DNA of 64,000 nucleotides from a virus. Below, piece by piece: positions 53 through 64,000 of the stretch (the stretch's first letter is position 1; each line of letters opens with the position of its first letter). The notes beneath the pieces were generated by a model. It saw only the letters and a program-made list of their open reading frames with translations. It was not told the DNA's origin and searched no databases. Location of the stretch: IMG/VR virus record IMGVR_UViG_3300002835_000013, one strand, 5' to 3'. The translations under genes and the position numbers were made by a program.

Positions 53-234
53 ATAACACCTATCATCAACTCTGAATACTGATGATACTTTATCTTATGT
101 ATTGGATTATTGTTATAAGGATCAGTATCATACCAACGATGCTCACCAATAACAATACCTATACAATCATAACCGTTTTCTTTATCTTCTTTCTTCCACA
201 TCGGAAGATATGTGATTTTATAATATAACATCAT
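43..234 (-). CDS. hypothetical protein inside tRNA array
   Basis: AT-rich ORF filling the gap between two tRNAs; start probably at 234 or 231. Confidence 0.45.
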   Translation of the reverse strand: MMLYYKITYLPMWKKEDKENGYDCIGIVIGEHRWYDTDPYNNNPIHKIKYHQYSELMIGVMPS

Positions 235-309
235 GGTGCTTCCCCTTAGAATCAAACTAAGTCCTTCTGCTCTTCAGGCAGTCGTGCGGATCACCTACAC
301 CAGAGAAGC
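234..309 (-). tRNA. tRNA-Phe(GAA)
   Basis: Cloverleaf, CTGC CT GAA GA GCAG, encoded CCA, atypical T-loop TTTGATT. Confidence 0.85.
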
Positions 310-314
310 ATAAA

Positions 315-389
315 TGGTGCTTCGTATGGGTATCGATCCCATCTTTCCCGCTTGAGAGGCGAGTGTCCTAGCCAATAGACGAACGAAGC
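315..389 (-). tRNA. tRNA-Glu(CTC)
   Basis: CTCGC CT CTC AA GCGGG; CCA end. Confidence 0.9.
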
Positions 390-399
390 GTAAAACTTT

Positions 400-534
400 T
401 TTTGTGAGGAACGAGTATGCATCCTCTTTTCAGTATCCGGGTTCCCAAGGTTACGACAGCCTCGCACCGTCTCCCGACCTCGATGTGGCAATTCTGCTCA
501 TCCGGATTATTTGTATCGATACTGCCTCACAAAA
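400..534 (-). ncRNA. putative structured ncRNA (135 nt) between tRNAs
   Basis: Terminal 10-bp inverted repeat TTTTGTGAGG/CCTCACAAAA plus internal stems TCCGG/CCGGA and CGAGG/CCTTG. Confidence 0.55.
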
Positions 535-535
535 C

Positions 536-610
536 TGGTGGACCTGGACGGAATCGAACCGCCGACATTCTGCTTGCAAAGCAGACGTTCTCCCCCTGAA
601 CTACAGGCCC
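536..610 (-). tRNA. tRNA-Ala(TGC)
   Basis: Cloverleaf with G3:U70, TGC anticodon, CCA. Confidence 0.95.
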
Positions 611-615
611 GTGAA

Positions 616-691
616 TGGCGCACTTAACCGGTACTGACCCGGCCGATACTCGGTTGACAGCCGAGTGGGTTCACCTGCTCCCTCTAAGTGC
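616..691 (-). tRNA. tRNA-Asp(GTC), atypical D/T loops
   Basis: CTCGG CT GTC AA CCGAG; acceptor GCACTTA/TAAGTGC; G73; T-loop GTCAGTA. Confidence 0.8.
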
Positions 692-772
692 ATTAAATCT
701 ATGAAGGTTACAACCCAGTCATAACTCGTCGCAACGGTTTTCTTACAGGTCTACCTACAATCCCTCTACGTT

Positions 773-849
773 TGGTGCGCCTGGTAAGATTCGAACTTAC
801 AACATCTGGTTTCTAAGACCAGCGCCTCTACCAATTGGACTACAAGCGC
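773..849 (-). tRNA. tRNA-Leu(TAG), short variable loop
   Basis: CTGGT CT TAG AA ACCAG; 77 nt; CCA. Confidence 0.92.
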
Positions 850-919
850 ATTATAATAAGTTGTCTGGTGCGCTATTCTACCTTATTAAGCATAGACGAA
901 GCGTGACAACTCTGCTTTC

Positions 920-994
920 TGGTGCGGGTTGATGGAATCGAACCACCGACACTCGGTATGTAACACCGATGTTCTACCTCTGAACTAAACCCGC
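920..994 (-). tRNA. tRNA-Val(TAC)
   Basis: TCGGT GT TAC AT ACCGA; CCA. Confidence 0.92.
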
Positions 995-999
995 ATAAA

Positions 1000-1089
1000 T
1001 GGCGGAAGAGTGAGGTCTCGATCCCCAAACCATATTTCAGGCTCCTTTCGTTTTCGAAACGAAGGCCAGTCCCACTGGCTTACTCTTCC
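1000..1089 (-). tRNA. tRNA-Ser(CGA), probable 8/4 fold
   Basis: GGAAGAGT/ACTCTTCC acceptor, 5-bp D stem, long variable arm, 4-bp T stem, G73. Confidence 0.85.
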
Positions 1090-1096
1090 ATTAAAC

Positions 1097-1185
1097 TGGC
1101 GGAGTGGCAGGTATCCGACACCTATCCCCTTTCGGGGACCATCCGCTTTCCAAGCGGTGCAGACTCCTTGCCTGTTGCTCACTCC
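1097..1185 (-). tRNA. tRNA-Ser(GGA), probable 8/4 fold with bulge
   Basis: GGAGTG-A-GC/GCCACTCC acceptor, variable arm GTCCCC GAAA GGGGAT, T stem AGGT/ACCT, G73. Confidence 0.8.
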
Positions 1186-1189
1186 TAAT

Positions 1190-1280
1190 TGGCGGAGAGT
1201 ATAGGATTCGAACCTATGGAACCGGGTTAGGGCCCAACCATTTAGCAAACGGCCGCTTTCGACCACTCAGCCAACTCTCC
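1190..1280 (-). tRNA. tRNA-Ser(GCT)
   Basis: Canonical type II cloverleaf, GCT anticodon, CCA. Confidence 0.95.
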
Positions 1281-1571
1281 ATTATACATTAAAAACCAAA
1301 CTGCTTCTTTACAATAGCAACTGCCGCTTCAAATGCCTCTTCCAACTGATTGTCTGTAGGACCATCACCTAGAATTTTACGCATTTCCTCAATTGCCGCT
1401 GCCTTGGTTTCCTCTGAAATCTTGAACATTCTGATTATCTCCACTAATCTGACTATGGATATTTAAATCCGATAGAACGAACCCTATTACTATACTCAAT
1501 AAAAAGAACACTGTCAAGCGAAAAATCATTTGGCGCTTCAAATAGTTTTCATCCATATATATCTTCCTAAA

Positions 1572-1647
1572 TGGTCTAGGTGGCTGGACTTGAACCAACA
1601 GCCTTCCCGCCCCAAACGGGATGCTCTGCCAATTGAGCTACACCTAG
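1572..1647 (-). tRNA. tRNA-Pro(TGG)
   Basis: C1-G72, A73, TGG anticodon, CCA. Confidence 0.93.
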
Positions 1648-1654
1648 ATAAAAC

Positions 1655-1728
1655 TGGCACCGGAGCCAGGAGTCGAACCTGGGCTTGCAGTTTTGGAGAC
1701 TGCCGTGCTACCGTAACACTTCACCGAT
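1655..1728 (-). tRNA. tRNA-Trp(CCA)
   Basis: GCAGT CT CCA AA ACTGC; G73; CCA. Confidence 0.9.
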
Positions 1729-1730
1729 AT

Positions 1731-1805
1731 TGGATGCGGACCCATGAGTCGAACATGGCTCTCTTGCTTATGAGACAAGAATGGTCTCCGGACCACCTGA
1801 CCGCA
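1731..1805 (-). tRNA. tRNA with CAT anticodon (Met/fMet-like), U73
   Basis: CTTGT CTCATAA GCAAG; acceptor TGCGG/CCGCA; lacks the three anticodon-stem G-C pairs of initiators. Confidence 0.75.
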
Positions 1806-1887
1806 AAACTTGCTGTCCCTCACGTCTTGGAACGAATGTTGTCTAGCATTGCGACACTCCATAAAGGCTGTGTATCTAGATCAAACA

Positions 1888-1962
1888 TGGTGCTGATAGT
1901 TGGAATTAAACCAACCTATAACGCCTTATGAGAGCGCCTCGACATCTTGCCGACCTACCAGC
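1888..1962 (-). tRNA. tRNA with CAT anticodon (Met or lysidine-Ile), atypical loops
   Basis: GCGCT CTCATAA GGCGT; T-loop TTTAATT; CCA. Confidence 0.75.
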
Positions 1963-1968
1963 ATTAAA

Positions 1969-2049
1969 TGGCCTTCACGGCAGGAGTCGAACCTGCATTT
2001 TCATCCAGTTACCTTACTCTCGGTTCGTAGCCGAGGGGGATACGTGAAG
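1969..2049 (-). tRNA. tRNA-like RNA with ACG (Arg) anticodon arm and rearranged D arm
   Basis: Perfect acceptor CTTCACG/CGTGAAG-G-CCA, perfect T arm, anticodon hairpin directly after TATCCC. Confidence 0.7.
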
Positions 2050-2053
2050 ATAT

Positions 2054-2127
2054 TGGAGCGGGCGAAGGGAATCGAACCCTCGTCTTTAGTTTGGAAGACT
2101 ATGGCTCTACCATTGAGCTACACCCGC
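2054..2127 (-). tRNA. tRNA-Gly(TCC)
   Basis: Canonical, U73, CCA. Confidence 0.95.
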
Positions 2128-2130
2128 AAT

Positions 2131-2297
2131 TGGATGATCCGGTCAGACCATCAAAAAACTTAGTGGGAAGTTTGATCCTAGTGAAAGAGACTTCCCATCG
2201 ACCCAGTCTTTTCTTCACTGAAATGAAGAAAACTTAGTCTAACTCTCATTCATACTTATTTTGAGTCGTTATGAACTTAACCGCTTTCGCTCGACTA
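2131..2297 (-). ncRNA. putative structured ncRNA ending in TCCA
   Basis: Hairpins TTTTCTTCA/TGAAGAAAA and TGGGAAGT/ACTTCCCA; no convincing ORF. Confidence 0.4.
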
Positions 2298-2298
2298 T

Positions 2299-2374
2299 TG
2301 GAGGATCCGGTCGGGCTCGAACCGACAGCCTTGGGATTAAAAGTCCCTTGCACCACCTATTGTGCTACGGATCC
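2299..2374 (-). tRNA. tRNA-Lys(TTT)
   Basis: GGGA CT TTT AA TCCC; CCA. Confidence 0.92.
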
Positions 2375-2385
2375 AAAATAAAGTA

Positions 2386-2466
2386 GGAACATAACACTCT
2401 CCATACCTTCTCGGAGATCAACCCGATATCTTACTTCGCAGAGTCAGCGTCCTGTTGTTATGTTCC
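2386..2466 (-). ncRNA. putative structured ncRNA (about 81 nt)
   Basis: 11-bp closing stem GGAACATAACA/TGTTATGTTCC enclosing small hairpins. Confidence 0.5.
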
Positions 2467-2469
2467 AAA

Positions 2470-2545
2470 TGGTAGACCGAGAGGGATTCGAACCCACGAC
2501 AAAGGGATTAAGAGTCCCCTGCTCTACCAACTGAGCTATCGGTCC
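2470..2545 (-). tRNA. tRNA-Lys(CTT)
   Basis: Canonical cloverleaf, CCA. Confidence 0.95.
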
Positions 2546-2550
2546 ATAAT

Positions 2551-2625
2551 TGGTCACCCATAGGGGTTTCGATCCCCTTTTTCCTGCTTGAAAGGCAGGC
2601 GTCCTAGCCACTAGACGAATGGGCG
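2551..2625 (-). tRNA. tRNA-Glu(TTC)
   Basis: CCTGC CT TTC AA GCAGG; CCA. Confidence 0.92.
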
Positions 2626-2629
2626 GTAT

Positions 2630-2707
2630 TGGCTCGGCGAGTTGGACTCGAACCAACCTTCATCTCGGTTAACAGCCGAGTGCGATCACCAGGATTGCTA
2701 TCGCCGA
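2630..2707 (-). tRNA. tRNA-Asn(GTT)
   Basis: CTCGG CT GTT AA CCGAG; G73; CCA. Confidence 0.92.
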
Positions 2708-2710
2708 ATA

Positions 2711-2796
2711 TTACTCTATTGAGAGATGCACCCTAAGCGTATATGGTTCAAGGCCATATCTTTAGGCTTATAAGGATGCACCCATCAATAAAGTAA
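2711..2796 (-). ncRNA. putative long rod-like hairpin RNA
   Basis: TTACTTTATTGA/TCAATAGAGTAA, GGGTGCATCCT/AGGGTGCATCT, ATATGG/CCATAT. Confidence 0.5.
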
Positions 2797-2797
2797 T

Positions 2798-2874
2798 TGG
2801 AGGTGCCGATGGGACTCGAACCCACATAAAACGGTTTTGCAGACCGCCCCGTAACCAGTTCCGGGCACGGCACC
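2798..2874 (-). tRNA. tRNA-Cys(GCA)
   Basis: GCA anticodon, U73, CCA. Confidence 0.95.
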
Positions 2875-2912
2875 TCAGTTATAACCCTATTCACAATGTC
2901 AAACAGCGGTAG

Positions 2913-3098
2913 CTAGGCAATCTTATACTCCTTGAACTTACGCTGAATAGATACAGCGCCAGTTGCCTTCAAGCGAGCATAATCTCGGAATGCCGAGCCG
3001 TCTTTATTATGATACTCTTTGCGGTAGTTAATCCGACCGTTAGGATCGGATGCCTCTACCACCCAGTAGTAGTCACGCTTTACGGTTTCGTCTTTCAT
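2913..3098 (-). CDS. hypothetical early protein
   Basis: GAGG RBS; directly downstream of tandem sigma70-type promoters. Confidence 0.7.
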   Translation of the reverse strand: MKDETVKRDYYWVVEASDPNGRINYRKEYHNKDGSAFRDYARLKATGAVSIQRKFKEYKIA

Positions 3099-3127
3099 CC
3101 GTACCTCGTTTCTGTCATCGTTCGCAT

Positions 3128-3302
3128 ACTATATAGCACACAAAACGCATAGTCAAGAACTTTTTTCGAAAAAAAGTGCGTCAGGTTGTCGCACCGTGTC
3201 CTTGACTTCTACCCTCTCGTCTCACTGTTCGCATACCATACCACAAGGAATCGCTTGGGTCAAGAACTTTTTTCAAAAATCTGATGCGACAGTTTGACGC
3301 AC
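3128..3302 (-). promoter_or_regulatory. tandem early promoters, each with an upstream GCGRC-N5-GNCGC box
   Basis: CTTGAC at 3152-3157 and 3259-3264 with -10 elements TATAGT and TATGGT; boxes at 3176-3194 and 3284-3302. Confidence 0.75.
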
Positions 3303-3453
3303 CCTTAGTCTATTGATTTTGTAGAATGTTTACATACCACTCGACAAGACCTTCATCGTTTCGCAAATGATCTTGCCATTGCTTCTCGGACATCTGTCCA
3401 GACCTATAACACTGTAGAAGCAACTCAAACTTTTCCATCACATGCTCCAAAGT

Positions 3454-3544
3454 TGGTAGGGGTGCCAGGTAACGCTCCTGGTCGAGAACGGTAATCGGCC
3501 GCTAAAGGGTTTATAAGTCCCTCTTGTGTCTTACACCCACCCCC
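3454..3544 (-). tRNA. non-canonical tRNA-like RNA with TAT (Ile) anticodon
   Basis: Acceptor GGGGGTG/CACCCCT-A-CCA; tiny D arm; AGGG-A-CTTATAA-A-CCCT; long variable arm; T-loop AGCGTTA. Confidence 0.7.
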
Positions 3545-3550
3545 ATAAAA

Positions 3551-3627
3551 TGGCGGTCCCAGAAGGATTCGAACCTTCAACCTACCGCTTAGAAGGCGGT
3601 TGCTCTATCCTGTTGAGCTATGGAACC
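3551..3627 (-). tRNA. tRNA-Arg(TCT)
   Basis: Canonical cloverleaf, CCA. Confidence 0.95.
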
Positions 3628-3712: not shown

Positions 3713-3952
3713 CTATTCCGCAAACTCTGCCAAGAATGCCTCATTTATATCACCTTTGGAGACCTTTGTCAAGACAAATCTTGGAGTGAATCCAGCAAAG
3801 CCTCCGCCGTTCGACCAGAAGTTACTCCATTCCTTGGCATCGTCCTCAAAGAAAAACTCCGCAACAACCTGTGCGGTTGCCTTTTCAAAGACATACCAAA
3901 TCAGTTCTTCGTTTTCATTGAACTCATGGTAATATGTATAATGTCGGCTCAT
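3713..3952 (-). CDS. hypothetical protein
   Basis: ATGA overlap with gp41; GGGFAGFTP motif. Confidence 0.75.
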   Translation of the reverse strand: MSRHYTYYHEFNENEELIWYVFEKATAQVVAEFFFEDDAKEWSNFWSNGGGFAGFTPRFVLTKVSKGDINEAFLAEFAE

Positions 3953-5635: not shown

Positions 5636-6677
5636 CTTCTGTCTCCACTTCTACATTATATTTGCCATACATGAAATCTGCCTGACAACCTTCATTGATA
5701 GCATCTAGTATTTCAGGTGTAAAGAACTTCTCTGGGTTCTTCTTGATCTGGCTTTCGAATGCCTTTGATCCATCAGGAAACTCATACTTGTTTGAAATCT
5801 TCTTGACGATGCCATAGCGTTCTGCCAAATCAAGCAGACCATAATACTTGTCTAGACCTGCCTGATAGTTTAGCCAAGTCTCAACTTTCTTATCTTCAAT
5901 AGTCATACGAGACTTCTTTAGATGTGCGGTAATAACTGCACCAGTTCTGCCATTGTCATCGTCTAGTGCCTTATCTTTCTTCTTTGATAGGAAGATAATT
6001 GTAGATGCGGCATACTCTAGACCAGAACCACCACCCATCTTCTTCATTGGCACATAAGATCCAACAACATCATAAACGTGATTGGTGACGATTAGTGGAA
6101 CCTTAGCCTTACCGAGTTTCAATGTAAGAACACGGAAGGCACCTCGAACCAATTGGGCTCTGGTCATGTCTCTTGTGTCTTTACCGTCAGCAATATCTGC
6201 CATTTCTTTATCTGTAGAAAGATTGCCAAGAGAATCCAGAACAAAAAGCATCGGTGGCTTTTCTTTGCCATCAAGATACTTGTCCAGAATCTTTACTGCC
6301 TGCGTTCTAAACTCCTGCACAGTAGCCACAGGAACAATGCCAACACGCCTTGCGTCAATGCCACGATCAACAATGAATTGTCTGGAGATAGCGGACTCGG
6401 ACTCAAAGTAAAATACAAAGCCATTTGCGTTGTCCTCTAGAAACTGCTTTACCACATTCAATGCGTAAAAGGTCTTACCAACAGAAGGCTCACCAGCAAA
6501 TGCTGTAACCTTGTTCTGTGGTAGACCTCCATAGATTGAACCAGATAGCAAGGCATTCATAGCATAGCTGCCTGTGCCAATGAATCCTGACACATCACCA
6601 GCGGCAACACCATCATCAACAATGCCTGCATACTCGTTATCGATTTCTGATAATAGATTACTAAAAATATCTGACAT
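5619..6677 (-). CDS. uvsX: RecA-like recombinase
   Basis: GEPSVGKT, LDSLGNL, DMTRAQ, MGGGSGLEYAAS. Confidence 0.97.
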   Translation of the reverse strand: MSDIFSNLLSEIDNEYAGIVDDGVAAGDVSGFIGTGSYAMNALLSGSIYGGLPQNKVTAFAGEPSVGKTFYALNVVKQFLEDNANGFVFYFESESAISRQFIVDRGIDARRVGIVPVATVQEFRTQAVKILDKYLDGKEKPPMLFVLDSLGNLSTDKEMADIADGKDTRDMTRAQLVRGAFRVLTLKLGKAKVPLIVTNHVYDVVGSYVPMKKMGGGSGLEYAASTIIFLSKKKDKALDDDNGRTGAVITAHLKKSRMTIEDKKVETWLNYQAGLDKYYGLLDLAERYGIVKKISNKYEFPDGSKAFESQIKKNPEKFFTPEILDAINEGCQADFMYGKYNVEVETEDGNGN

Positions 6678-11426: not shown

Positions 11427-11810
11427 ATGCCCACAATTCTTTTATCACTAATTACATCAGGTGCTTTGAAGTGGATTTCCATTTTGGTTCTTGTTTTTGG
11501 ACTTGTTGGCGGTATGTATTCCAAACACAGGCAGATTGTTGATCAGGAAAAACAAATAGCTCTCCAACAGTATAACATCAAACAGTTGGAACAAACCGTA
11601 AAGGATCGTGATAGATATATCGGTGAAGTGGAAGACCTGTATAGAACAAGGTCGGAACGAATCAATGAACTTCTTCTGGAGAACAAGGAACTAGAAAAGA
11701 AACTAGAGGCAATCAATACACAAATTGATAAGCATGTTGGTGCTGGTCGTGACAAAGAGTCCTCACAGATATTGAAAGACACTATCAAGTCTCTTGGAGA
11801 AATGAAATGA
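11427..11810 (+). CDS. putative inner-membrane spanin (Rz-like)
   Basis: N-terminal TM helix followed by coiled coil; overlaps a lipoprotein gene; GGAGG RBS. Confidence 0.7.
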   Translation: MPTILLSLITSGALKWISILVLVFGLVGGMYSKHRQIVDQEKQIALQQYNIKQLEQTVKDRDRYIGEVEDLYRTRSERINELLLENKELEKKLEAINTQIDKHVGAGRDKESSQILKDTIKSLGEMK

Positions 11811-12088
11811 AAAAGATTATTCTATTGGTAGCAGTAATACTACTGGCTTCTTGTAATGACACGAAGCAGGTTGTGAAATCATATCGTCATATGGTTGTGC
11901 ATCCTGACGAGGCAATGTATTACTGTCCTGTTGTGAAACATTTTCCGAACTGGAACACTCTGACGGACAGTCAGGTTGCCAAGTTGATTGTTCAATTACA
12001 TAAGAACAATTTGACATGTAAAAGCTCCATAGAAAGTATTCGTAAGTTTCTGAAAGACGCTGACGCTAGAGTGAAAAGGGCGGAGTAA
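11807..12088 (+). CDS. putative outer-membrane lipoprotein spanin (Rz1-like)
   Basis: Lipobox LLAS-C, two further Cys, ATGA overlap with the preceding gene. Confidence 0.7.
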   Translation: MKKIILLVAVILLASCNDTKQVVKSYRHMVVHPDEAMYYCPVVKHFPNWNTLTDSQVAKLIVQLHKNNLTCKSSIESIRKFLKDADARVKRAE

Positions 12089-12102: not shown

Positions 12103-12339
12103 TTATTCTTTTGGTGGCTCTGTCAATAGAGCAGTATGAACGGTTGTTACCTGTGTAATGAAACGCATTACAATCATGATAACACCGCTAACTGCGGTTG
12201 CTGCTGGAACGACCATGTTTTCTGGCACGCCCCAACCTAGTAGCAATCCATTCCAATCGACCATGCCGAGTTTTTCGGTTACCCATGGTAGAACAGATAC
12301 AACTAGAGCCATTAGATATGTTTTATATGGAAACATCAT
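12103..12339 (-). CDS. small two-TM membrane protein, holin candidate
   Basis: Two hydrophobic segments; GGAG RBS; CTAAATA late-promoter motif at 12376-12382. Confidence 0.55.
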   Translation of the reverse strand: MMFPYKTYLMALVVSVLPWVTEKLGMVDWNGLLLGWGVPENMVVPAATAVSGVIMIVMRFITQVTTVHTALLTEPPKE

Positions 12340-12385
12340 ATTCTCCTTTCGAAAGTAGACCCGAGGGTCCACTTCTATTTAGAGT

Positions 12386-12835
12386 TTAGTCAAGTTTAGC
12401 CCACTCTTTTAGTTTATTCATAAACGCTTCAAGCTGTTCTTTATCGTAGCAATGAACTTTATGATTTGCACCTTTATATGGTTCCCTAAAACCTTTATAG
12501 ATTGTATTCTCCTTAGGACCATACTTGTTCACCATTTCAAACACTCTAGGCAGAATCCAATCATTGAATACTGATTCGTCCTTACGCTTATTCTCAACAG
12601 ACCGATAAGGTTTGCCGGCAAGATAAGCACGGGCAAGAAATGTGGCACGATTTTCGTTCCGAACATCCCATACACGGTGATTATGAATAGACTGATACTT
12701 ATACACAAGATTCAGCGGAAGAGCCTGACGACTGGACATCCAGCGAATTTGCTTTTTGAGTTTACGTTCCTCGTGCTTGATAACTTTTGCTTCTAGTCCG
12801 AGGTGCTTTGATTTAATCTTTAGTTCAATACTCAT
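12386..12835 (-). CDS. basic 149-aa conserved phage protein under leader control
   Basis: LKIKSKHL..EAKVIKHEE...HNHRVWDVRNENRATFLARAYLAGKPYRSVE; RBS in hairpin. Confidence 0.85.
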   Translation of the reverse strand: MSIELKIKSKHLGLEAKVIKHEERKLKKQIRWMSSRQALPLNLVYKYQSIHNHRVWDVRNENRATFLARAYLAGKPYRSVENKRKDESVFNDWILPRVFEMVNKYGPKENTIYKGFREPYKGANHKVHCYDKEQLEAFMNKLKEWAKLD

Positions 12836-12921
12836 TTTGTTTCCTTTCTAATAACTGGTTCATAATGTGAATTAGGAAACAAGGGTGGTGATCTAGCAAC
12901 CTACATAAAAACTTCTTTCAT
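12832..12921 (-). CDS. leader peptide with in-frame amber codon: MKEVFM*VARSPPLFPNSHYEPVIRKETK
   Basis: AAGGAG RBS; TAG at 12901-12903; final TGA overlaps the ATG of the next gene. Confidence 0.75.
12837..12882 (-). promoter_or_regulatory. RBS-sequestering attenuator hairpin
   Basis: TTGTTTCCT (12874-12882) pairs perfectly with AGGAAACAA (12837-12845). Confidence 0.75.
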
Positions 12922-12941
12922 ATTATTCTCCTTTTGTTGAA

Positions 12942-13016
12942 TGGTGCCCCTAGTAGGACTTGAACCCACGTAAAGTCGTTTTAGAGACGACCGCATAACC
13001 ACTCTGCCATAGGGGC
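12942..13016 (-). tRNA. amber suppressor tRNA (CTA anticodon)
   Basis: GCCCCTA/TAGGGGC acceptor, GTCGT CT CTA AA ACGAC, A73, CCA; CTAAATA at 13024-13030 just upstream. Confidence 0.93.
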
Positions 13017-13026
13017 ACTAAACTAT

Positions 13027-13266
13027 TTAGCCTGGAATCTGGTAGACTGCGGTGCCACAAGAGGGCTTGATAACGATAGAACCTTCCCAAGGACGAAGCC
13101 AACCACGATGCCAAGTTCCCTGGACACAATACATGCCACGATGAACAGGAACTGACCAGTCACCAGTGAACGGTGGATCCTGAACGGGATTGTAATAAGT
13201 GCCGTATGGATCGGCCATTGCAGCCGTGCTGAATAGTAGTGCAGTAACAACCAAAATCTTCTTCAT
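13027..13266 (-). CDS. small exported protein
   Basis: Signal peptide MKKILVVTALLFSTAAMA; two Cys. Confidence 0.7.
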   Translation of the reverse strand: MKKILVVTALLFSTAAMADPYGTYYNPVQDPPFTGDWSVPVHRGMYCVQGTWHRGWLRPWEGSIVIKPSCGTAVYQIPG

Positions 13267-16408: not shown

Positions 16409-16449
16409 TGACCAGTATCCAGGATAGGATACCTGGTCAAGTATTTAGT
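16409..16449 (-). promoter_or_regulatory. late-promoter motif and 5' hairpin of pmoC
   Basis: ACTAAATA at 16442-16449, then a TGACCAG-GTATCC/GGATAC-TGGTCA stem. Confidence 0.65.
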
Positions 16450-29901: not shown

Positions 29902-30441
29902 TTATTTAGTCTTTGGTGTTAGAGCATCTGTCCAACTTTTTACGCCTTCGGTCAGAAATTGCTTCGTTGCTTCCTGAACACCAAACGGATCAAGAATGTC
30001 AATCTTCTTGGCCTTATTCTCTTCTGGAACAAAACGCTCCAAGAAAATCTTTAGCATACCATTGGCAAGTTCCGCATTCTTGACTTCGACCTTATCAGCA
30101 ATGGTGAACTTCCGAGTGAAAGCACGATTAGCAATTCCTTTGTGAAGGTAGTCGCCTTCCTCTGCCTCAGTGCTTCCTGTAATAGACAGGACATCATTCT
30201 TTAGTTCGATATCAAGGTTATGCTTACCAAAACCAGCAACAGCCATTTCGATCACATAATGTTCCTCATCAATCTTCTTTACATTGTATGGAGGATAAGA
30301 TGGAATCTTTGGAACATATTCATTTGCCTCGGCGATTTGCTGGAGCACCCGATCAAAGCCGATAGCGCCCTTTGAAATGTCGTTAGCAAATGTGAAAGGA
30401 TCAAACCAGAAACGGTCTGTGGAACGATTATTATTACCCAT
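29902..30441 (-). CDS. hsp20: small heat-shock protein (IbpA-like)
   Basis: YPPYN, IEMAVAGF, YLHKGIANRAFTRKF, NGMLKI. Confidence 0.95.
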   Translation of the reverse strand: MGNNNRSTDRFWFDPFTFANDISKGAIGFDRVLQQIAEANEYVPKIPSYPPYNVKKIDEEHYVIEMAVAGFGKHNLDIELKNDVLSITGSTEAEEGDYLHKGIANRAFTRKFTIADKVEVKNAELANGMLKIFLERFVPEENKAKKIDILDPFGVQEATKQFLTEGVKSWTDALTPKTK

Positions 30442-30525: not shown

Positions 30526-31071
30526 TCAAGATGTATAATACTCGGAAAAGGTAAATGTTCTTCCTGTATTGGCGCTTGTGACAGTTGATCCTGGTCCAAT
30601 ACCTGTTTGCGAAGTCATGTTATTCATAACCAAAACACCTTGACCACCACCTTGATTTGCTACTCTGGATACTTGACCCATGACTTGCGAACCAATCTGC
30701 ATAATCTCACCGACACCTGGTATACCAGACATACCAAAAGAACCTAGTCCACCACCGAAGGAACCTAATCCACCATATGCAGTAACTTTATTAGAACCTC
30801 CAGCAGGCGTAGGCAATCCCTCAACATGTGTTAGTAAAGGATTGACCATATCAGGAGCGCCTTGATCCATCAAAGAAACAATCATCGGTATACCTTGTAC
30901 CAAAATTTTTTGTGGTGATAAAGATATCAATGCTCCAAGATTCATATGACTGTTTAGTGTTCCCTGAACAGCTACTAGCAAGTTATCAGCGAGAACTTTT
31001 GTATTTAATCCTGTGTCAACCGTTACGGCTCCACACAATCTAGGATCTGTTACTCTATGAACTTTTGGCAT
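30526..31071 (-). CDS. PAAR-like spike-tip protein with C-terminal extension
   Basis: HRVTDPRLCGA...H...GSNKV pattern. Confidence 0.6.
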   Translation of the reverse strand: MPKVHRVTDPRLCGAVTVDTGLNTKVLADNLLVAVQGTLNSHMNLGALISLSPQKILVQGIPMIVSLMDQGAPDMVNPLLTHVEGLPTPAGGSNKVTAYGGLGSFGGGLGSFGMSGIPGVGEIMQIGSQVMGQVSRVANQGGGQGVLVMNNMTSQTGIGPGSTVTSANTGRTFTFSEYYTS

Positions 31072-31675
31072 TAGTTTTAGGTCGTCCTCTTCCCCTCTTT
31101 GGGGCTTCGTTTATTTTTCTCATTTCTACAACTTGTAACTGTGGAATATTTATCACAACTGTATCACCTTCGTCTTGAATACCTGTTGATCCCATACCAC
31201 CGACACGACTTGTCTTTACCCCAGGTCGTGCTGCGGTTTCTACAATAGAATAAGTTTCGTCTTTGATTAGTTCGGCCTGTGCGATACGATCACCTGTATG
31301 AATGTTGATGGCATTGTCGGAGATATTCCAAATAAGAACCATCAATTCTTCTACATAGTCTGAATCAATAACGCCTTCGGCATTAGCCAGAACAAGACCT
31401 TGCTTTAGTGATAGACCTGACCGGGCGTGAACACGGACAGAATAACCTTCGGGAATGTCCAGAATGAGACCTGTGGGAACCATAATCCTATCACCAGGCT
31501 GAATGCTAATCATACCACTCATAGGGCGAGTAAAGGCTTTATTGCTTCGTGAAAAGCCTTTATACTCTACCTTACCGGCACTCTGAAACTGTAAATCAAA
31601 GCAGGCAGAACCTTCGGTCTGCTTCTTTGGAATCTGATTATAAGGATGCGTTTTCCAAATTTTCAACTGTGTCAT
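31055..31675 (-). CDS. dut: trimeric dUTPase with AT-hook tail
   Basis: SACFDL, RSGL, GVIDSDY, RIAQ, GGMGSTG; KRGRGRPK. Confidence 0.93.
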   Translation of the reverse strand: MTQLKIWKTHPYNQIPKKQTEGSACFDLQFQSAGKVEYKGFSRSNKAFTRPMSGMISIQPGDRIMVPTGLILDIPEGYSVRVHARSGLSLKQGLVLANAEGVIDSDYVEELMVLIWNISDNAINIHTGDRIAQAELIKDETYSIVETAARPGVKTSRVGGMGSTGIQDEGDTVVINIPQLQVVEMRKINEAPKRGRGRPKTNAKSS

Positions 31676-36620: not shown

Positions 36621-36685
36621 CATTCATTATAGAGTCACAGCCATGCGACTCCGTTTTTGTCTATCTGTAAACCGTATTCATCTAT

Positions 36686-37909
36686 TCAGAAAGCAACTTC
36701 CTCACCAGTGATGGTTGCTTCCGGTTGCGGAACAGGTTGCGGATCAACGGTTTCATCGACTTTCTTATAGAGTTCCATAAACGCATTCTTAGTATCCACA
36801 TCAAAGCGGTTGAGACAAAGTTCTATAGCCTTCATACGGTTCTGATTAAAGATGGCAAATGCCTCGCAGATATGAACCAGACGGCGAGTGGAGATGATTT
36901 CAGACAAGGCACCTTCATAGAAGGACTTGCGAATAACATCTGCCCAAGTCACCAACTTCTCAACAAATTCGGCACTCTCGATACCAGAAGCACCAAGAAC
37001 ATTGTTGAGGATTTTGGTTTCAATCTTAGTCGAAGGATATTCCTGTTCCATCGTGATAGAGAAACGCTCAAGGAACGCTTCGTTCATAACGTTGGTGCCG
37101 ATAAAGCGACCATCGTCGGAACCCTTACCCTTGGTATTCGCCGTAGCAATAACGTTGAAACCATTTTCAGGATGGACAAGACGGTTAATCTTTTTGAGAT
37201 AAACAGACTTGCCTTCGAGAACAGGCTGGAGACACATTAGCTTATTGGAGCCAAGGTCAACTTCGTCCAGAAGAAGAATAGCACCACGCTGCATGGCAAC
37301 AATAACAGGACCATCCTGCCAGACAGTAGCACCATCGACAAGGCGGAAACCACCAATAAGATCATCTTCGTCGGTTTCAATAGTAATATTGACACGGACG
37401 CACTCACGCTTTTCAACGGCACAAACCTGTTCGACCATCATCGTCTTACCGTTACCAGAAAGACCAGTAACGTAAGCAGGATAAAACTTCTTAGACTTGA
37501 TGATAGAACGAACATCGCTAAAGTTACCGAACGGCACATAGCCATTCGCCTTTTCAGGCACTAGCGAAACCTCGGCAGAAGCAGAAGTGGAAGCCGCAGC
37601 CATAGCAATCGTAGAGGAAGGAGCCATAGCAACAACGGACTCAACAACAGGAATATCAGACTGGATCTTAGCAGTCTTACGAGGAGCAACCGTCTTTTCA
37701 GCAACGGGAGCAAGATTTACACCGTGATCGGTCAAAGCATAAACACCACGACCAACACGGAGAGAGGGATCTTTCACAAGCCAAGCAGGATAAATACCAT
37801 ACTTTTCGTGAATGGTCAAAATTTGCTGACGGGTGATTTCACGAATGGCACCAAACTCAAAGCGGACCTTGTCCAGAAACACAGAACGGTTATCGGTAGA
37901 TTTAGCCAT
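36686..37909 (-). CDS. cobS: CobS/MoxR-like AAA+ ATPase
   Basis: GLSGNGKT, ETDEDDLIGG, LLDEVD, ATANTKGKG, EAFLERF, ISTRRL. Confidence 0.93.
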   Translation of the reverse strand: MAKSTDNRSVFLDKVRFEFGAIREITRQQILTIHEKYGIYPAWLVKDPSLRVGRGVYALTDHGVNLAPVAEKTVAPRKTAKIQSDIPVVESVVAMAPSSTIAMAAASTSASAEVSLVPEKANGYVPFGNFSDVRSIIKSKKFYPAYVTGLSGNGKTMMVEQVCAVEKRECVRVNITIETDEDDLIGGFRLVDGATVWQDGPVIVAMQRGAILLLDEVDLGSNKLMCLQPVLEGKSVYLKKINRLVHPENGFNVIATANTKGKGSDDGRFIGTNVMNEAFLERFSITMEQEYPSTKIETKILNNVLGASGIESAEFVEKLVTWADVIRKSFYEGALSEIISTRRLVHICEAFAIFNQNRMKAIELCLNRFDVDTKNAFMELYKKVDETVDPQPVPQPEATITGEEVAF

Positions 37910-37946
37910 ATCGAAACTTTCCTTTCACGATTTTCGATTATGATGT

Positions 37947-37998
37947 ATTATACCACAAGGAAGGGATCTTGTCAACCCCTTCCTAAGTCTTTGATTTT
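37947..37998 (-). promoter_or_regulatory. sigma70 early promoter with upstream IHF-like site
   Basis: TTGACA-17-TATAAT; AATCAA-AGAC-TTA matches WATCAA-N4-TTR. Confidence 0.7.
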
Positions 37999-40216
37999 AC
38001 GCAATCTTCTTGGACTGTTGCGTAACGTTATTGATGAACTGACGCAGAAGGACACGATTGATGGACTTTTTAGCGGCAAACTTGGAGAATGCCTTGGCCA
38101 TGGATTTCGTGGACTTTGTATTGTCGATTTCCAATTCGTTCTCCGTTTCACGAAGAACATTGGAATTGATCACATAATATTCATCATAACCTTCATTCTT
38201 GACTGGATAGAACTTGTTTTCTTTCCAGAACTTGACAACCTTTTCGACGTAGTGATAGTTGGTACCATCATTCATACCAAAGCGAGACAAGAACCGTTTG
38301 ATGTTGGAATCAGACAGAAAGAAACCAATCAGATTACAATCAGTCTGATCCTTTAGCATCTTTAGAAACTTGTTAGTGGTGTTTGCACCATCACCCCAAC
38401 CGTAAAGGCTGATATCGTAAGTCTTACCAGAAGACTTATCAACATACTTATACATAACCTTACGACCAGGTTGAACACCGGTACAATTTTTGATACCACC
38501 AAGACCGTTTGACTCACCATCGGTAAGGAAAATAGTGTTGACGATTTCCAACTTATGTTTGGCACGGAAGTCGTTGATAATCTTAGGAGCAAGAATAACT
38601 GCCTCATTGAGAGGCGTGCCACCGAGACCATCAGTATAAAGACGACTATGACCACCAACCATAGAAAGAAACGTCATAGCCTCGTTTAGTTCCGCAAGAG
38701 TCATCTTGGAAGATAGAAACTGGCGAAGCACCACGTTACCAAGACCAATAACATTCTCTTTACCAAGATAAGAGAATGGATTTTCAGCACCAGAATCCTT
38801 GAAGGCATACACCTCGAACGGCACTTGGATCTGCTTACAAAACAGAACCAGAGTAAACAACTGCCGAAGAGTATACTTCAGGTTTCTATCCATAGAACCA
38901 GACCAATCAAGAAACATGATAAAGCCATGGTTCTTGCCTTCCGGCACTGTAGTCAACCGACGGAAGATATCATCATTGAACTTGTAAGAGTGGAGTTTAT
39001 TAGTGTCAATAACACCAGTCTTAGCCACAGAAATGCGAGAATACATTTCCGCAGCCTTGCGCTGCTCAAACTCTTTTACAAGAAACGAAATGCTATCTTT
39101 TTCTTTTTGACGCCACTGGTTGAAAGCGGCACGACCTTCTTCAAAGGTCTTCTTAGAAAAGTGTCCGTAGTAACCAGCGCCAACCAGACGACGCCAATCA
39201 CTAAGAACTCGCTTATAATCGTGAATAGCCTTGTCCCAGTTTACATCAGGAAGGGTGACATAGACATAATCGGTATTATCGTCTTTGACTAGTTCCTGAA
39301 CTTTTTCTTCCCAAACACGGTCAGTATAAGACTCGGGAGCCTTGATTTCATCGGAACTGGCACCAGCACCATCAGAGGTATTACCAGAACCATTATCACC
39401 GATATCACCTTCGCCCTTTACAGCGTCGGATTTACCTTCACCTTCGTCACCTTCACCGTCTTCGGCATCTTCTTCGGAATCATCACCATCAAGGTCACCA
39501 TCCCAATCGTCAGCATCATCGGAAAAATCGTCAATGTCATAGGAGTCTCCTTTGTCTCCATCTTCGCTTTCGCCAAGACCGAGGTCGTTATGAATATCGT
39601 TTTCAATCTTATCTTTACAAAAACGATACACCTTCTCGGCAACTTCCACAACCTCTGCGAAAGTTTCAATATTTTCAATCTGCTTTAGAAGCACTCGCTC
39701 TTCGGGAGTAAACTCAATATTGAGATTGATGTTACCACCCTTGAAGTAGACATTGACACGGTCGATAAAGTTCATAGAATTGATATCACGACCCTTCGTG
39801 CCGAAGAAGTCACGGTCAATAAGTTCTTTATAACCAGCGAGATAGTTACGACGAAGACCAGGATAACGGCGCTTCTGGCGCTTGTCAATACGGACATCTT
39901 CGATAACATTAACGAAGCCCTGGACGGTGCGCTTTAGCTGATCGCTAACTTCGGAACCGAATACACGATTAGCAATATCCTCATATGCCTTTTTATACTC
40001 TTCGCCTGAAGGCGTATCAATAGCATGAGCCGTTTCGTGACCGATAAGCAAATGCTCAAGATCCTGCGAAATATCATGCCACATAGGCAGCATAAGAACA
40101 CGGTTCTTGAGGTCGAACATAGCGGTTTTGATACCGCTCTTATGCTGAACAGTAATGTTCTCGGTCGCCAACAGCTTGGCAAGAAGCGAGTTGGAATTTA
40201 CGGTCATTGCGGTCAT
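37997..40216 (-). CDS. CobT-like HExxH peptidase / VWA-domain protein
   Basis: LAKLLATENI, GHETAH, NVIEDVRI, MIDAS DWSGSM, GGTPL, LTDGE. Confidence 0.9.
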   Translation of the reverse strand: MTAMTVNSNSLLAKLLATENITVQHKSGIKTAMFDLKNRVLMLPMWHDISQDLEHLLIGHETAHAIDTPSGEEYKKAYEDIANRVFGSEVSDQLKRTVQGFVNVIEDVRIDKRQKRRYPGLRRNYLAGYKELIDRDFFGTKGRDINSMNFIDRVNVYFKGGNINLNIEFTPEERVLLKQIENIETFAEVVEVAEKVYRFCKDKIENDIHNDLGLGESEDGDKGDSYDIDDFSDDADDWDGDLDGDDSEEDAEDGEGDEGEGKSDAVKGEGDIGDNGSGNTSDGAGASSDEIKAPESYTDRVWEEKVQELVKDDNTDYVYVTLPDVNWDKAIHDYKRVLSDWRRLVGAGYYGHFSKKTFEEGRAAFNQWRQKEKDSISFLVKEFEQRKAAEMYSRISVAKTGVIDTNKLHSYKFNDDIFRRLTTVPEGKNHGFIMFLDWSGSMDRNLKYTLRQLFTLVLFCKQIQVPFEVYAFKDSGAENPFSYLGKENVIGLGNVVLRQFLSSKMTLAELNEAMTFLSMVGGHSRLYTDGLGGTPLNEAVILAPKIINDFRAKHKLEIVNTIFLTDGESNGLGGIKNCTGVQPGRKVMYKYVDKSSGKTYDISLYGWGDGANTTNKFLKMLKDQTDCNLIGFFLSDSNIKRFLSRFGMNDGTNYHYVEKVVKFWKENKFYPVKNEGYDEYYVINSNVLRETENELEIDNTKSTKSMAKAFSKFAAKKSINRVLLRQFINNVTQQSKKIA

Positions 40217-46950: not shown

Positions 46951-47022
46951 AGGCTGGCGCTCCTGTTTAGCGTTAGAGTAGGCAGGTGCTGGTAACACCG
47001 TGGCCTACATCTATTTAGCATT

Positions 47023-48824: not shown

Positions 48825-49901
48825 CTATACTGTTTCAACCTGTAAGGCTTCGTTATATACATCAATCATAAAGTTTTTCATCTTACCACTATCCAGAGGC
48901 AATGTCAACCCATCAATATATTTTCTGAGGATCGTTACTGTATCTTCTGCCTCATCGATTTCTTCCGCATCTTCACTATCTAGTAAAACGCTAGGATCTT
49001 CCACAATCTGAATATCCAGCGGGCCTGCTTTATAGATAGAATCAAAAAGCAAGTCAAAAGCATATGGATTGCTTTTGTTTACGACAACCAACTTTACATA
49101 GGTGTCTTTATACTTGCTAAAGTCTGTGTTCTGAATCTTCTCAATGATTTCGGGATTAGCCACATCATCATATTTGGCAATGCGGAACATCTTATGTGGA
49201 TTCTGAATGAACTCTAGTTTCTTGTTCCTACTATCCAGCGTAGAAAATCCTCTAGGGTCTCCGTAATCGTGCCAAGTATACTCACCAAAGGCCCCAATAT
49301 AAGTAATATTACCAACAGTGCTACGGTGGTGATAGTGACCTGAGTATACAGCGTCAAAGTTCTCAAATAGTTTGCGATCCAGTCCATGGTCCGATATAAG
49401 TCCTCTATGCATAGTAAAGCCGTTCAACTCAAGGTGACCCATGAGAATAGATGCTTTGGGATGTTTGATTGCTTCTAATGCTTCCTCACGGTTAGAGTCC
49501 GTGATCCATGGCATTATTTGAATATCAAGGCCGTCAATGTTAATAACCCGAGGTACAGAATGAGTATGAATATACCTATACTTTCCTGCGACCAGTTCAT
49601 CTAACGCATTAACCTCGTGCGTATCCTTGTAATAAGAGTCATGATTGCCTTGTATAATGTGAGTTTCAATTCCTCTCTCCTCTAGTGGCTCAAAGAAATC
49701 TTCCCGCAATCTCTTGGCGGACATAAAGTTCACATACTTGCGACGATCATAGATATCACCAAGATGGATGACATGCTTGATGTTATTAGCATCGATGTAA
49801 TCAAAGAACCACTTCCAACACTTCTTTTGATAAGCCTGAAAGGCAGGATTATCGTTTCTGATACCAGCGTGAGTATCAGTAGGCATCGCAATCTTTACCA
49901 T
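48825..49901 (-). CDS. gp47: SbcD/Mre11-like nuclease subunit
   Basis: TDTH, HLGD, GNHD, SGHYH. Confidence 0.96.
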   Translation of the reverse strand: MVKIAMPTDTHAGIRNDNPAFQAYQKKCWKWFFDYIDANNIKHVIHLGDIYDRRKYVNFMSAKRLREDFFEPLEERGIETHIIQGNHDSYYKDTHEVNALDELVAGKYRYIHTHSVPRVINIDGLDIQIMPWITDSNREEALEAIKHPKASILMGHLELNGFTMHRGLISDHGLDRKLFENFDAVYSGHYHHRSTVGNITYIGAFGEYTWHDYGDPRGFSTLDSRNKKLEFIQNPHKMFRIAKYDDVANPEIIEKIQNTDFSKYKDTYVKLVVVNKSNPYAFDLLFDSIYKAGPLDIQIVEDPSVLLDSEDAEEIDEAEDTVTILRKYIDGLTLPLDSGKMKNFMIDVYNEALQVETV

Positions 49902-51766: not shown

Positions 51767-51803
51767 GTAGTCGAGCGAAGCGAGACAGTTGCGAAGCAAC
51801 TAC
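51767..51803 (+). repeat. twin GCGAAGC mini-hairpin element
   Basis: GTC-GA-GCGAAGC-GA-GAC and AGTT-GCGAAGC-AACT. Confidence 0.65.
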
Positions 51804-52099
51804 TTAGCAGTAACACCTGGTTCCGTTAGCATTAGCAATTTGTCTATCTGCTTTTTAAGCACAGGTCCGCGGTCAGGCCACTTGATGATAGGCTGATCGG
51901 AATTCTTAGCAAGGTTCTGTAGAAGTGGAAGATAAATCTTGCGGACCGCTTCCAGTCTTTTCTTGAGGTCTGCTATTTCATCCGAAACAGGTGCTATCGC
52001 TTCCGCTACTATATCATCTTCATTTCCAAATGTAAAGCCGAAATCATCCACTAGGTCTGCGTCATCTAGTGTAAGATACTCGTTTGTATTAGCAGGCAT
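51800..52099 (-). CDS. conserved T4-like hypothetical protein
   Basis: DDFGF...PLLQNLAKN..IKWPDR. Confidence 0.8.
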   Translation of the reverse strand: MPANTNEYLTLDDADLVDDFGFTFGNEDDIVAEAIAPVSDEIADLKKRLEAVRKIYLPLLQNLAKNSDQPIIKWPDRGPVLKKQIDKLLMLTEPGVTAK

Positions 52100-54979: not shown

Positions 54980-55009
54980 GGCAGTCCTCCACTATTATTT
55001 AGTAGACAT

Positions 55010-58014: not shown

Positions 58015-58047
58015 AATTAGATTACTCCTTTTCCTTATTTAGTAATT

Positions 58048-63182: not shown

Positions 63183-63203
63183 ATGGAAATCCTTTTTTAT
63201 TAT

Positions 63204-64000
63204 TTAGTTGATAGGAACAAGTTCGCCATTTTCATTGAGATGTGTTACTTCACCATCGGTATTGGCATATCTGTTAGAACCAACATATGTTAGTCCCATT
63301 TCTCTTGCTTCCTTGACAACAGACTTTTTAGCTGGTGCTGATTTCTTTGACTGAATCTGTGCCAACTTGATCTTCTTATCCATCATCTTGGACTCATGAT
63401 CACGACCCGAAACTTCTGCTTTACCTGGACCTTCATCTGGTCCAGTAATCTTCTCGACTTCCTTATCAACTTGTGCTTGTGCAATTTGTTGTTGTGCGCC
63501 AAATGCAATTTGATTCTGCATATCTTGTTGTTGTTGTGCTTGCTGCGCCTCCTGATCCGCAATAGCCTGTTGCTGTTGCTGTTGCGCCAGAATAGCATTC
63601 TCTTGTTCCATCTGTGCGTTGATTTCTTCAATATCATCTTCGGACTGTTGAAGAATGTTCTTACGAACCCACATCATAGAATAATATCTACCAACAAATG
63701 GATCAACTTTGATTAGTGTGTCCAGACGAAGATTTAGGAGTTCTGCTTCCTTTAGTTCGTCAAAGTTATTGTCTTTCTTATAGTCGTACCAGATATCTTC
63801 TTTGATTTCTTTCCATTCTTCGTCGGTACAAACCTTTTTCAATACCAACTGAATACGAAGGAGTTCATCGAATAGTGTGGAGAATTTATTACGAAGTCTG
63901 GTAACGAACTTATTGAACTTTAGTTCGTCTCTTGTAATCTCTGTGGTGCGGCCTAGTGTAAAGCCTGGACTCTGTTCCATACGTGATACAGGAACACCAA
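63204..64000 (-). CDS. gp20: portal protein, 5' part outside window
   Basis: GRTTEITRDELKFNKFVTRLRNKF, DNNFDELKEAE; long Q-rich C-terminal extension. Confidence 0.95.
   Translation of the reverse strand, partial: GVPVSRMEQSPGFTLGRTTEITRDELKFNKFVTRLRNKFSTLFDELLRIQLVLKKVCTDEEWKEIKEDIWYDYKKDNNFDELKEAELLNLRLDTLIKVDPFVGRYYSMMWVRKNILQQSEDDIEEINAQMEQENAILAQQQQQQAIADQEAQQAQQQQDMQNQIAFGAQQQIAQAQVDKEVEKITGPDEGPGKAEVSGRDHESKMMDKKIKLAQIQSKKSAPAKKSVVKEAREMGLTYVGSNRYANTDGEVTHLNENGELVPIN

Follow-up and report, generated by a model that had tools for sequence, protein, structure and literature searches.

A putative translational switch gated by stop-codon readthrough in standard-code tailed phages

The 64,000-nucleotide stretch of viral DNA analyzed here (IMG/VR record IMGVR_UViG_3300002835_000013, hereafter the window) belongs to a tailed phage with a standard genetic code, recovered from lake metagenomes. 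On its minus strand, to which all the window coordinates of the switch elements refer, it carries a compact module made up of a suppressor transfer RNA (tRNA) with anticodon CUA, a short leader open reading frame (ORF) interrupted by an in-frame TAG, a hairpin that holds the Shine-Dalgarno (SD) sequence of the following gene, and that gene, which encodes a basic, helical protein of 149 amino acids (aa), here termed P0001. We consider it likely that this module works as a readthrough-gated, arrest-type translational ON switch. The preliminary description of the locus had proposed an amber-readthrough-gated switch, and the comparison of leader, hairpin and tRNA among homologs lends support to that interpretation. 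At the level of sequence, the comparison brings out a conserved anatomy, a special stop codon kept in frame, a hairpin over the SD and a correspondence between anticodon and gating codon; we infer that ribosomes would pause at a Pro-Pro motif in the leader, that this pause would turn the gene on and that the elements would be co-transcribed.

All the elements initially named (tRNA-CUA, ribosome-binding site, TAG/RSPP leader, anti-SD stem and 149-aa ORF) were recovered in place. The tRNA gene (12942-13016) is 75 nucleotides (nt) long, includes an encoded CCA end and is reported by ARAGORN as 'Pyl(cta)', a label given to any CUA anticodon; the Rfam tRNA model fits it from end to end (61.8 bits, E 2e-12). 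The leader has its own SD, AAGGAG (12928-12933), 6 nt before its ATG (12921-12919), with GGAG or AGGA as the equivalent in relatives. Its initial placement behind the tRNA holds, save that the distance from the CCA to the leader ATG measures 20 nt and not 21. The complete leader (12832-12921) reads MKEVFM, TAG, VARSPP, LFPNSHYEPVIRKETK, TGA. The gating UAG, or lock, is codon 7 (12901-12903) and is followed by AGA TCA CCA CCC, encoding Arg-Ser-Pro-Pro (12883-12894), the putative pause or arrest site, which gives 12 residues up to Pro-Pro and no hydrophobic segment. Directly after the second Pro codon, and 18 nt past the TAG, begins the 5' arm of the hairpin, TTGTTTCCT (12874-12882), which acts as the candidate anti-SD and is the perfect complement of the 3' arm, AGGAAACAA (12837-12845), where the SD of the 149-aa gene resides. 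The frame stays open up to the leader TGA (12834-12832), which overlaps the ATG (12835-12833) of the gene to be controlled (12386-12835).

The evidence that carries this reading comes from relatives of P0001. About 150 loci encoding such relatives were collected from viral and metagenome contigs, with protein identities ranging from 98% down to approximately 45%, and were reduced to 88 distinct upstream regions. Leaders were sought automatically as a start codon followed by 0-25 codons, any stop, 2-9 further codons and Pro-Pro; 73 of the 88 regions contained one and, even though any stop was allowed, the first stop was TAG in all 73. Two further loci (L071 and L075) have the TAG 13 codons ahead of R-[GA]-P-P-stop, and ten others harbor a conserved ORF of 81-83 aa that starts as M-x(1-4)-TAG and ends in Pro-Pro-stop at the hairpin (for instance, L055:1189-1437 and L130:1190-1438, plus eight similar loci), bringing the regions with an early in-frame TAG followed by Pro-Pro to 85 of 88. 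In the clade with the longer ORF, the leader appears to be replaced by a real protein that would need amber readthrough; its product is predicted to be all-beta and yielded no family or fold match. Only L070, which ends in ..RDGPS-stop, L074, with a TGA leader, and L138, without leader, depart from the pattern.

Typical leaders among these relatives are MKRYHL-stop-ITRPP-stop, MKEFNS-stop-ITKPP-stop, MSDNS-stop-ITKPP-stop, M-stop-IKKPP-stop and MTF-stop-VKLPRPP-stop, and the clade of the window follows the pattern M..F[MR]-stop-V[AS]R[SG]PP. The six closest viral contigs all present tRNA-CUA, then a leader with TAG and then V-x-R-x-P-P. The spacing from TAG to the first Pro ranges from 2 to 6 codons and is 3 codons in 49 of 73 leaders, TAG is followed by a purine (A or G) in 68 of 73, and the second stop is TAA in 54 leaders, TAG in nine and TGA in seven. 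When up to 30 nt upstream of Pro-Pro were inspected with no frame condition, the Pro-Pro frame held 76 TAG, 3 TAA and no TGA codons, while TAA and TGA occurred 61 and 55 times, respectively, in the other two frames. This in-frame depletion of TAA and TGA behind the TAG indicates that the frame is kept open, as in translated sequence, and the leader pattern as a whole is, by these counts, far beyond chance. The conservation of the leader peptide reaches only to Pro-Pro. Beyond it, the ATGA junction of the window, which had been put forward as a point to which the ribosome might run on, is not a shared design, since the leader of L004 stops 21 nt before the gene and that of L005 continues in frame into it.

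The same arrangement is present in cultured phages. Ruegeria phage DSS3_MAL1 (MN602268) encodes a tRNA labeled 'Pyl', the leader MKS-stop-IRPPP-stop and a 10-bp stem (TCTCCTTGAT/ATCAAGGAGA); Synechococcus phage BUCT-ZZ01 (ON615601), which infects Synechococcus elongatus, has tRNA-CUA and the leader MGGDAS-stop-INLKPP-stop; and Stenotrophomonas phage DLP3 (MT110073) has the leader MK-stop-VYKPP-stop, with tRNA-CUA just 3' of the gene. As regards annotation, the 'tRNA-Glu' DLP3_153 of GenBank (L182:998-1071; MT110073 49181-49254) has anticodon CUA according to ARAGORN, and the BUCT-ZZ01 tRNA-CUA (L180:463-538) lacks a GenBank annotation.

The link between tRNA and leader is most apparent where both change. 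Of 75 leader-bearing relatives, 60 have a tRNA-CUA within the retrieved locus, and some of the others have tRNAs that ARAGORN misses; its odd calls '(ct)' and '(ccta)' correspond to CUA anticodons in unusual loops, and the leaders beside them contain an in-frame TAG. In L074, the protein of which is 98% identical to those of L071 and L075, the CUA tRNA is replaced by a tRNA-UCA (1272-1347), and the leader (approximately 1375-1470) reads MIMIIFS, TGA, ..IRGPP, versus MGDNT, TAG, ..IR[GA]PP in L071 and L075. More distant homologs in G006, G007 and G008 (37-42% identity) are accompanied by a tRNA-like gene with a good acceptor stem and T arm, which ARAGORN misses and which has an 8-nt anticodon loop, N-U-UUCA-A-N. 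The leaders of these three genomes begin ATG-NNN-TGA-A and have their Pro-Pro motif in the +1 frame, where it is reached only by four-base reading of UGAA, yielding M N X Y P I R S P P, M F X C L I Q K P P-stop and M N X Y N N R G P P, with each Pro-Pro motif again at an SD-pairing hairpin. The loci with 8-nt-loop tRNAs are L203 (1470-1545, leader approximately 1590-1640), L201 (approximately 745-820, minus strand) and L202 (6296-6366, leader 5814-5851). A UGAA site next to such a tRNA would constitute natural programmed four-base decoding. Three pairs of key and lock can thus be distinguished, namely CUA with TAG, UCA with TGA and the 8-nt UUCA loop with UGAA (+1), and a match of this kind between anticodon and gating element would be hard to explain unless the neighboring tRNA decodes the leader. 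In two of these lineages a phage-encoded permuted transfer-messenger RNA (tmRNA) gene of the alphaproteobacterial type is also present (L202:5104-5466 and L201:1805-2155, the latter on the minus strand; Rfam scores of 130 and 88 bits), 0.5-0.8 kb upstream of the module of leader and P0001.

The hairpin is conserved as a structure and not as a sequence. In the window it consists of 9 bp (-9.1 kcal/mol), with a z-score of -2.9 on a 56-nt segment. Among relatives, all 73 leaders place the start of the 5' arm of the minimum-energy hairpin between -5 and +4 nt relative to where the Pro-Pro codons end, and all pair at least half of the SD that follows; the mean z-score is -3.4, with 89% of the values below -2. 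As a control, 41 other genes of the window gave a mean z-score of -0.55, and only 7% of them combine a z-score below -2 with a paired SD. In L071 and L075 the 5' arm begins 3-11 nt upstream of Pro-Pro. The distance from Pro-Pro to the ATG of the gene is 47-69 nt in every leader but that of L121, where it is 88 nt. Stem sequences are wholly different between clades (TTGTTTCCT/AGGAAACAA, TTCCTTTTG/CAAAAGGAA, CCCTAAATTGG/CCAATTTAGG, CCTTGATTA/TAATCAAGG and TAATTAACATT/AATGTTAATTA), and a within-clade alignment reveals compensatory changes at 3 of 10 stem pairs. When 50 diverse hairpin regions were aligned with MAFFT, RNAalifold returned no consensus structure, since stems this different in sequence cannot be aligned. 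The covarying anti-SD stem that had been anticipated in homologs is hence borne out by the SD pairing in all 73 leaders, by the compensatory pairs and by unrelated stems that maintain their pairing between clades. The wider expectation that homologs would share a ribosome-binding site, a short ORF, TAG and R-x-P-P, together with such a stem and a nearby tRNA-CUA, was likewise confirmed on comparison. Between tRNA-CUA and leader, L045 contains a skipping-rope RNA (RF02924, 1266-1383; 43.7 bits, above the gathering score), and in L014, L043, L047 and L146 the corresponding position is taken up by a shared, conserved segment of about 135 nt.

With regard to the putative pause site, 85 of the 88 distinct relatives contain Pro-Pro. 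Its codons vary, the first being CCA in 51 leaders, CCG in 13, CCT in 8 and CCC in 1, and the second CCC in 35, CCT in 28, CCA in 8 and CCG in 2. A basic residue occupies position -1 or -2 in 64 of 73 leaders, standing directly before Pro-Pro in 48, and a stop follows immediately in 60. Pro-Pro-stop is a context of slow termination, and Hayes and co-workers are said to have found in 2002 that a C-terminal Pro-Pro leads to SsrA tagging in E. coli. The RSPP core initially assigned to the window has counterparts in relatives, in which RGPP, RAPP, RDPP and REPP occur, so that R-x-P-P does recur; the core common to the family is a basic residue, Pro-Pro and an immediate stop, and RSPP with a long tail is a variant of one clade. 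RAPP and RGPP have been reported to cause arrest that resists elongation factor P (EF-P) and depends little on upstream sequence, and RSPP and RDPP to be partly arrest-permissive and strongly depleted from proteomes (PMC12992588). Judging by their residues, the RSPP of the window and the RGPP, RAPP and RDPP of its relatives belong to this RAPP-like set (PMC12992588; PMC10951233). A ribosome with its P site on the first Pro codon would have the 9-nt arm at about +7 to +15, within the messenger RNA (mRNA) channel, and for one with TAG in the A site the arm would start at about +25, out of reach. These values rely on established ribosome footprint sizes, and the geometry fits a model in which a ribosome at the putative stall site would cover the 5' arm.

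The sequence of events that we propose is as follows. The tRNA-CUA, the leader and the 149-aa gene would form one module, probably expressed as one transcript from CTAAATA, in which the SD of the gene is held in the hairpin and a ribosome translating the leader meets UAG at codon 7. If release factor 1 (RF1) wins, the ribosome would leave 18 nt short of the hairpin, the SD would remain sequestered and the gene would be off. If the phage tRNA-CUA reads the UAG instead, the ribosome would move four or five codons to Arg-Ser-Pro-Pro or, in most relatives, to a pause site made of Lys/Arg-Pro-Pro and a stop. Pausing there with the 5' arm inside the mRNA channel would free the SD and allow other ribosomes to start the 149-aa gene. 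Since the gene would be on only via readthrough, its output would report on the synthesis and charging of the suppressor tRNA and on its competition with the release factor. The CTAAATA motif, a candidate phage promoter by inference, ends 7 nt before the tRNA (13024-13030) and precedes the tRNA also in L005, a relative with 63% identity. The window contains 14 copies against 11.5 expected, all 14 on the coding strand and mostly just 5' of genes, 10-25 nt ahead of start codons; they include 12376-12382, 13024-13030, 16442-16448, 29903-29909, 47012-47018, 54996-55002, 58036-58042 and 63201-63207, and one copy sits between the 149-aa gene and its next gene.

Several observations weigh against this mechanism. 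Taken in a 146-nt context, the stem of the window, with only its 9 bp and -9.1 kcal/mol, has a z-score of -0.07, which is not significant; the hairpin is therefore weak on its own and the case rests on the comparison with relatives. The shortest leader peptides, such as M-X-I-K-K-P-P, can extend only a little way into the exit tunnel, which leaves the chemistry of Pro-Pro or of termination as the sole source of any pause. L138 has a tRNA-CUA 23 nt from the gene and yet no leader, and nine leaders end, after Pro-Pro, in a TAG that the same tRNA could also read. Runs labeled as RNA provided only short contigs, possibly derived from DNA and patchy over the region, and show nothing on transcripts. 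Finally, in many relatives, including the largest clade, the GG of the SD has the CC of a Pro codon as its pairing partner, and part of the Pro-Pro conservation may therefore operate at the RNA level.

This last point is one argument for an alternative in which readthrough is coupled to expression without any arrest, the ribosome opening the 5' arm simply by passing over it or terminating at it, and CCN-CCN being kept as anti-SD RNA. In the largest clade the hairpin does start inside the second Pro codon and, in line with mere passage, the leader of the window clade runs to the ATGA overlap and that of L005 enters the gene. On the other hand, a stem that begins only 3-4 nt later does not do away with Pro-Pro, nor does an arm upstream of it, as in L071 and L075; both Pro codons vary at their third position; 64 of 73 leaders have a basic residue at -1 or -2, and RSPP, RGPP, RAPP and RDPP recur, matching published arrest cores; and the regions beyond Pro-Pro are not conserved. 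We regard coupling without arrest as unlikely. A second alternative leaves the structure unchanged but differs in what it reads: with the tRNA held constant, the switch would sense the termination and rescue state of the host (RF1, rescue, EF-P or tRNA-cleaving defenses), and P0001 would answer attempts of the host to interfere with translation. By construction, the output is set by RF1 competing with the tRNA, the module lies inside phage tRNA arrays in many relatives and the phage tmRNA is found within 0.8 kb in two of them, all of which is agreeable to such a sensor; no feature at sequence level separates it from a switch that reports on the suppressor tRNA, the tmRNA neighborhood was seen in two lineages only, and we judge this alternative quite unlikely. 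The least tenable alternative, which we deem very improbable, takes the TAG as the plain end of a six-codon mini-ORF followed by an untranslated spacer and hairpin, with an unrelated tRNA-CUA: the ORF does end at TAG under the standard code and short upstream ORFs are common, but TAA and TGA are kept out of the frame that follows the TAG, which has Pro-Pro-stop in phase, ten loci encode a conserved 81-83-aa protein there, and the gating codon changes with the anticodon.

The genomes examined that carry the putative switch use the standard code. The window is 91-92% coding under code 11, and genome-wide TAG recoding was rejected because its coding density is not collapsed under that code and it contains no genuine genes with in-frame TAG. 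Long TAG-containing frames on the plus strand (36671-40009) are antisense shadows of real minus-strand genes, other ORFs of the window with a TAG at codon 4 lack an SD and look like chance occurrences, and a 443-codon frame with one TAG in G001 resolves into two adjacent ORFs, one of which is a NUMOD3 endonuclease. In two large relatives, G001 (136 kb) and G003 (218 kb, rated complete), coding density under code 11 is 0.90 and 0.93, respectively, and does not change with TAG as a sense codon. TAG accounts for 12-13% of the stops in G001 and G003, and for approximately 5-13% of those of predicted genes across the genomes examined. The window and these two relatives thus carry a suppressor tRNA without recoding and, the genomes not being recoded, the leader is the only evident UAG target. 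The few real genes of the window that end in TAG (48825-49901, 31055-31675, 51800-52099 and 3713-3952, all on the minus strand) would gain C-terminal extensions under suppression.

P0001 has more than 1000 metagenomic homologs, and profile searches against Pfam, PHROGs, NCBIfam, PADLOC and PDB gave no match for it. Its AlphaFold model (pLDDT, the predicted local distance difference test, of 90.7) opens with a long helical hairpin (residues 3-72) and continues with a further helix, a small beta hairpin and, at the C-terminus, a last helix. Structure searches (Foldseek against PDB, ESM Atlas and a wide VIA-align) found only generic helical hairpins, and a feature search of the ESM Atlas gave no usable hit. 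Similarities to the seryl-tRNA synthetase arm and the FemA arm (Z of about 8) were discarded as lying within the background for helical proteins, and the fused forms of P0001 come down to one 333-aa protein, probably a gene-calling artefact. The predicted complex of P0001 with E. coli RF1 scored 0.01, which speaks neither for nor against an interaction. The Pth2 family (PF01981) was looked for in the vicinity of P0001 in five relatives and did not turn up. In relatives, the gene is often located within phage tRNA arrays, and our guess is that P0001 has a role in translation or in the control of the suppressor tRNA itself. The earlier suggestions that the module is a sensor or feedback loop on termination, and that its product acts on the ribosome, release factors or the tRNA, are speculation. 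In the same tentative spirit, we can imagine, as a possibility to which we lend limited credence, that the module belongs to a family of 'decoding-state' switches with exchangeable key and lock, whose helical products of 120-150 aa would feed back on decoding or termination and set how the cell reads its stop codons.

The proposed design would extend leader-peptide translational control to a new kind of input, and its closest known counterparts are the RAPP-like arrest peptides (ApdA, ApdP, ApcA and, with RAGP, SecM) found upstream of sec and yidC genes. In common with the phage leaders, these are small upstream ORFs with an Arg-x-Pro-Pro core, positioned such that stalling would unfold a structure that hides the next ribosome-binding site (PMC12992588, PMC10951233). 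They differ in that arrest is lifted when the nascent chain is secreted or inserted into the membrane, whereas the phage leaders comprise 7-13 residues without a signal sequence, have no sequence homology to them and precede the gene for helical P0001 instead of one of the sec or yidC type. Moreover, the phage motif would be reached only through tRNA readthrough of a stop, and in most relatives it is Lys/Arg-Pro-Pro plus stop and not R-x-P-P. The attenuation of ermC by ErmCL also involves a leader ORF with its own SD and a stalled ribosome that melts an SD-hiding hairpin, but there the input is a drug in the exit tunnel and here it would be the decoding of a stop codon inside the leader. Pausing at Pro-stop, as in TnaC (...R-P-stop, PMC8450073), recalls the 60 of 73 phage leaders that end in a basic residue, Pro-Pro and a stop; the phage design includes no ligand, and any ribosome that arrives at the site would pause constitutively.

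Stop-codon suppression itself has been associated with phage gene expression in recoded phages (code 15 or code 4; Borges et al., bioRxiv 10.1101/2021.08.26.457843), whose suppressor tRNAs are proposed to time expression, but genomes of the window type are not recoded and have one regulatory leader as their sole evident target. Synthetic switches based on UAG and unnatural amino acids (PMC6412442) share with the module an output conditional on amber suppression; they are engineered and place the UAG in the reporter itself, while the phage design is natural and would act through a leader and an SD hairpin. A survey of the literature, including the above preprint on phage recoding (bioRxiv 10.1101/2021.08.26.457843), found no natural switch gated by stop-codon readthrough. 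Lone suppressor tRNAs occur in many standard-code phages without known purpose, and the leader offers them a concrete, conserved target. If confirmed, the module would be the first natural gene switch with stop-codon readthrough as its input, a likely intermediate on the way to complete recoding of stop codons in phages and an off-the-shelf component for synthetic biology. Its occurrence in cultured phages of Stenotrophomonas, Ruegeria and Synechococcus elongatus makes the design directly testable.

As for the remainder of the window, a near-identity DNA search of the INPHARED phage collection gave no match. The genome encodes a DNA polymerase, DnaB, CobS/CobT-like proteins, SbcC and a scaffold protein, together with an array of 18 tRNAs at 234-3627. 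The genes of the window lie on the minus strand, apart from a plus-strand pair at 11427-12088. The genes downstream of the switch resemble a lysis cassette, a layout that is not kept beside P0001 in other phages: a small protein with two transmembrane segments (12103-12372, minus strand) is followed by the plus-strand pair (11427-11810 and 11807-12088), of which one gene encodes a coiled-coil membrane protein and the other a lipoprotein that weakly resembles LysC/Rz1 (E 2e-5, short of the cut-off).

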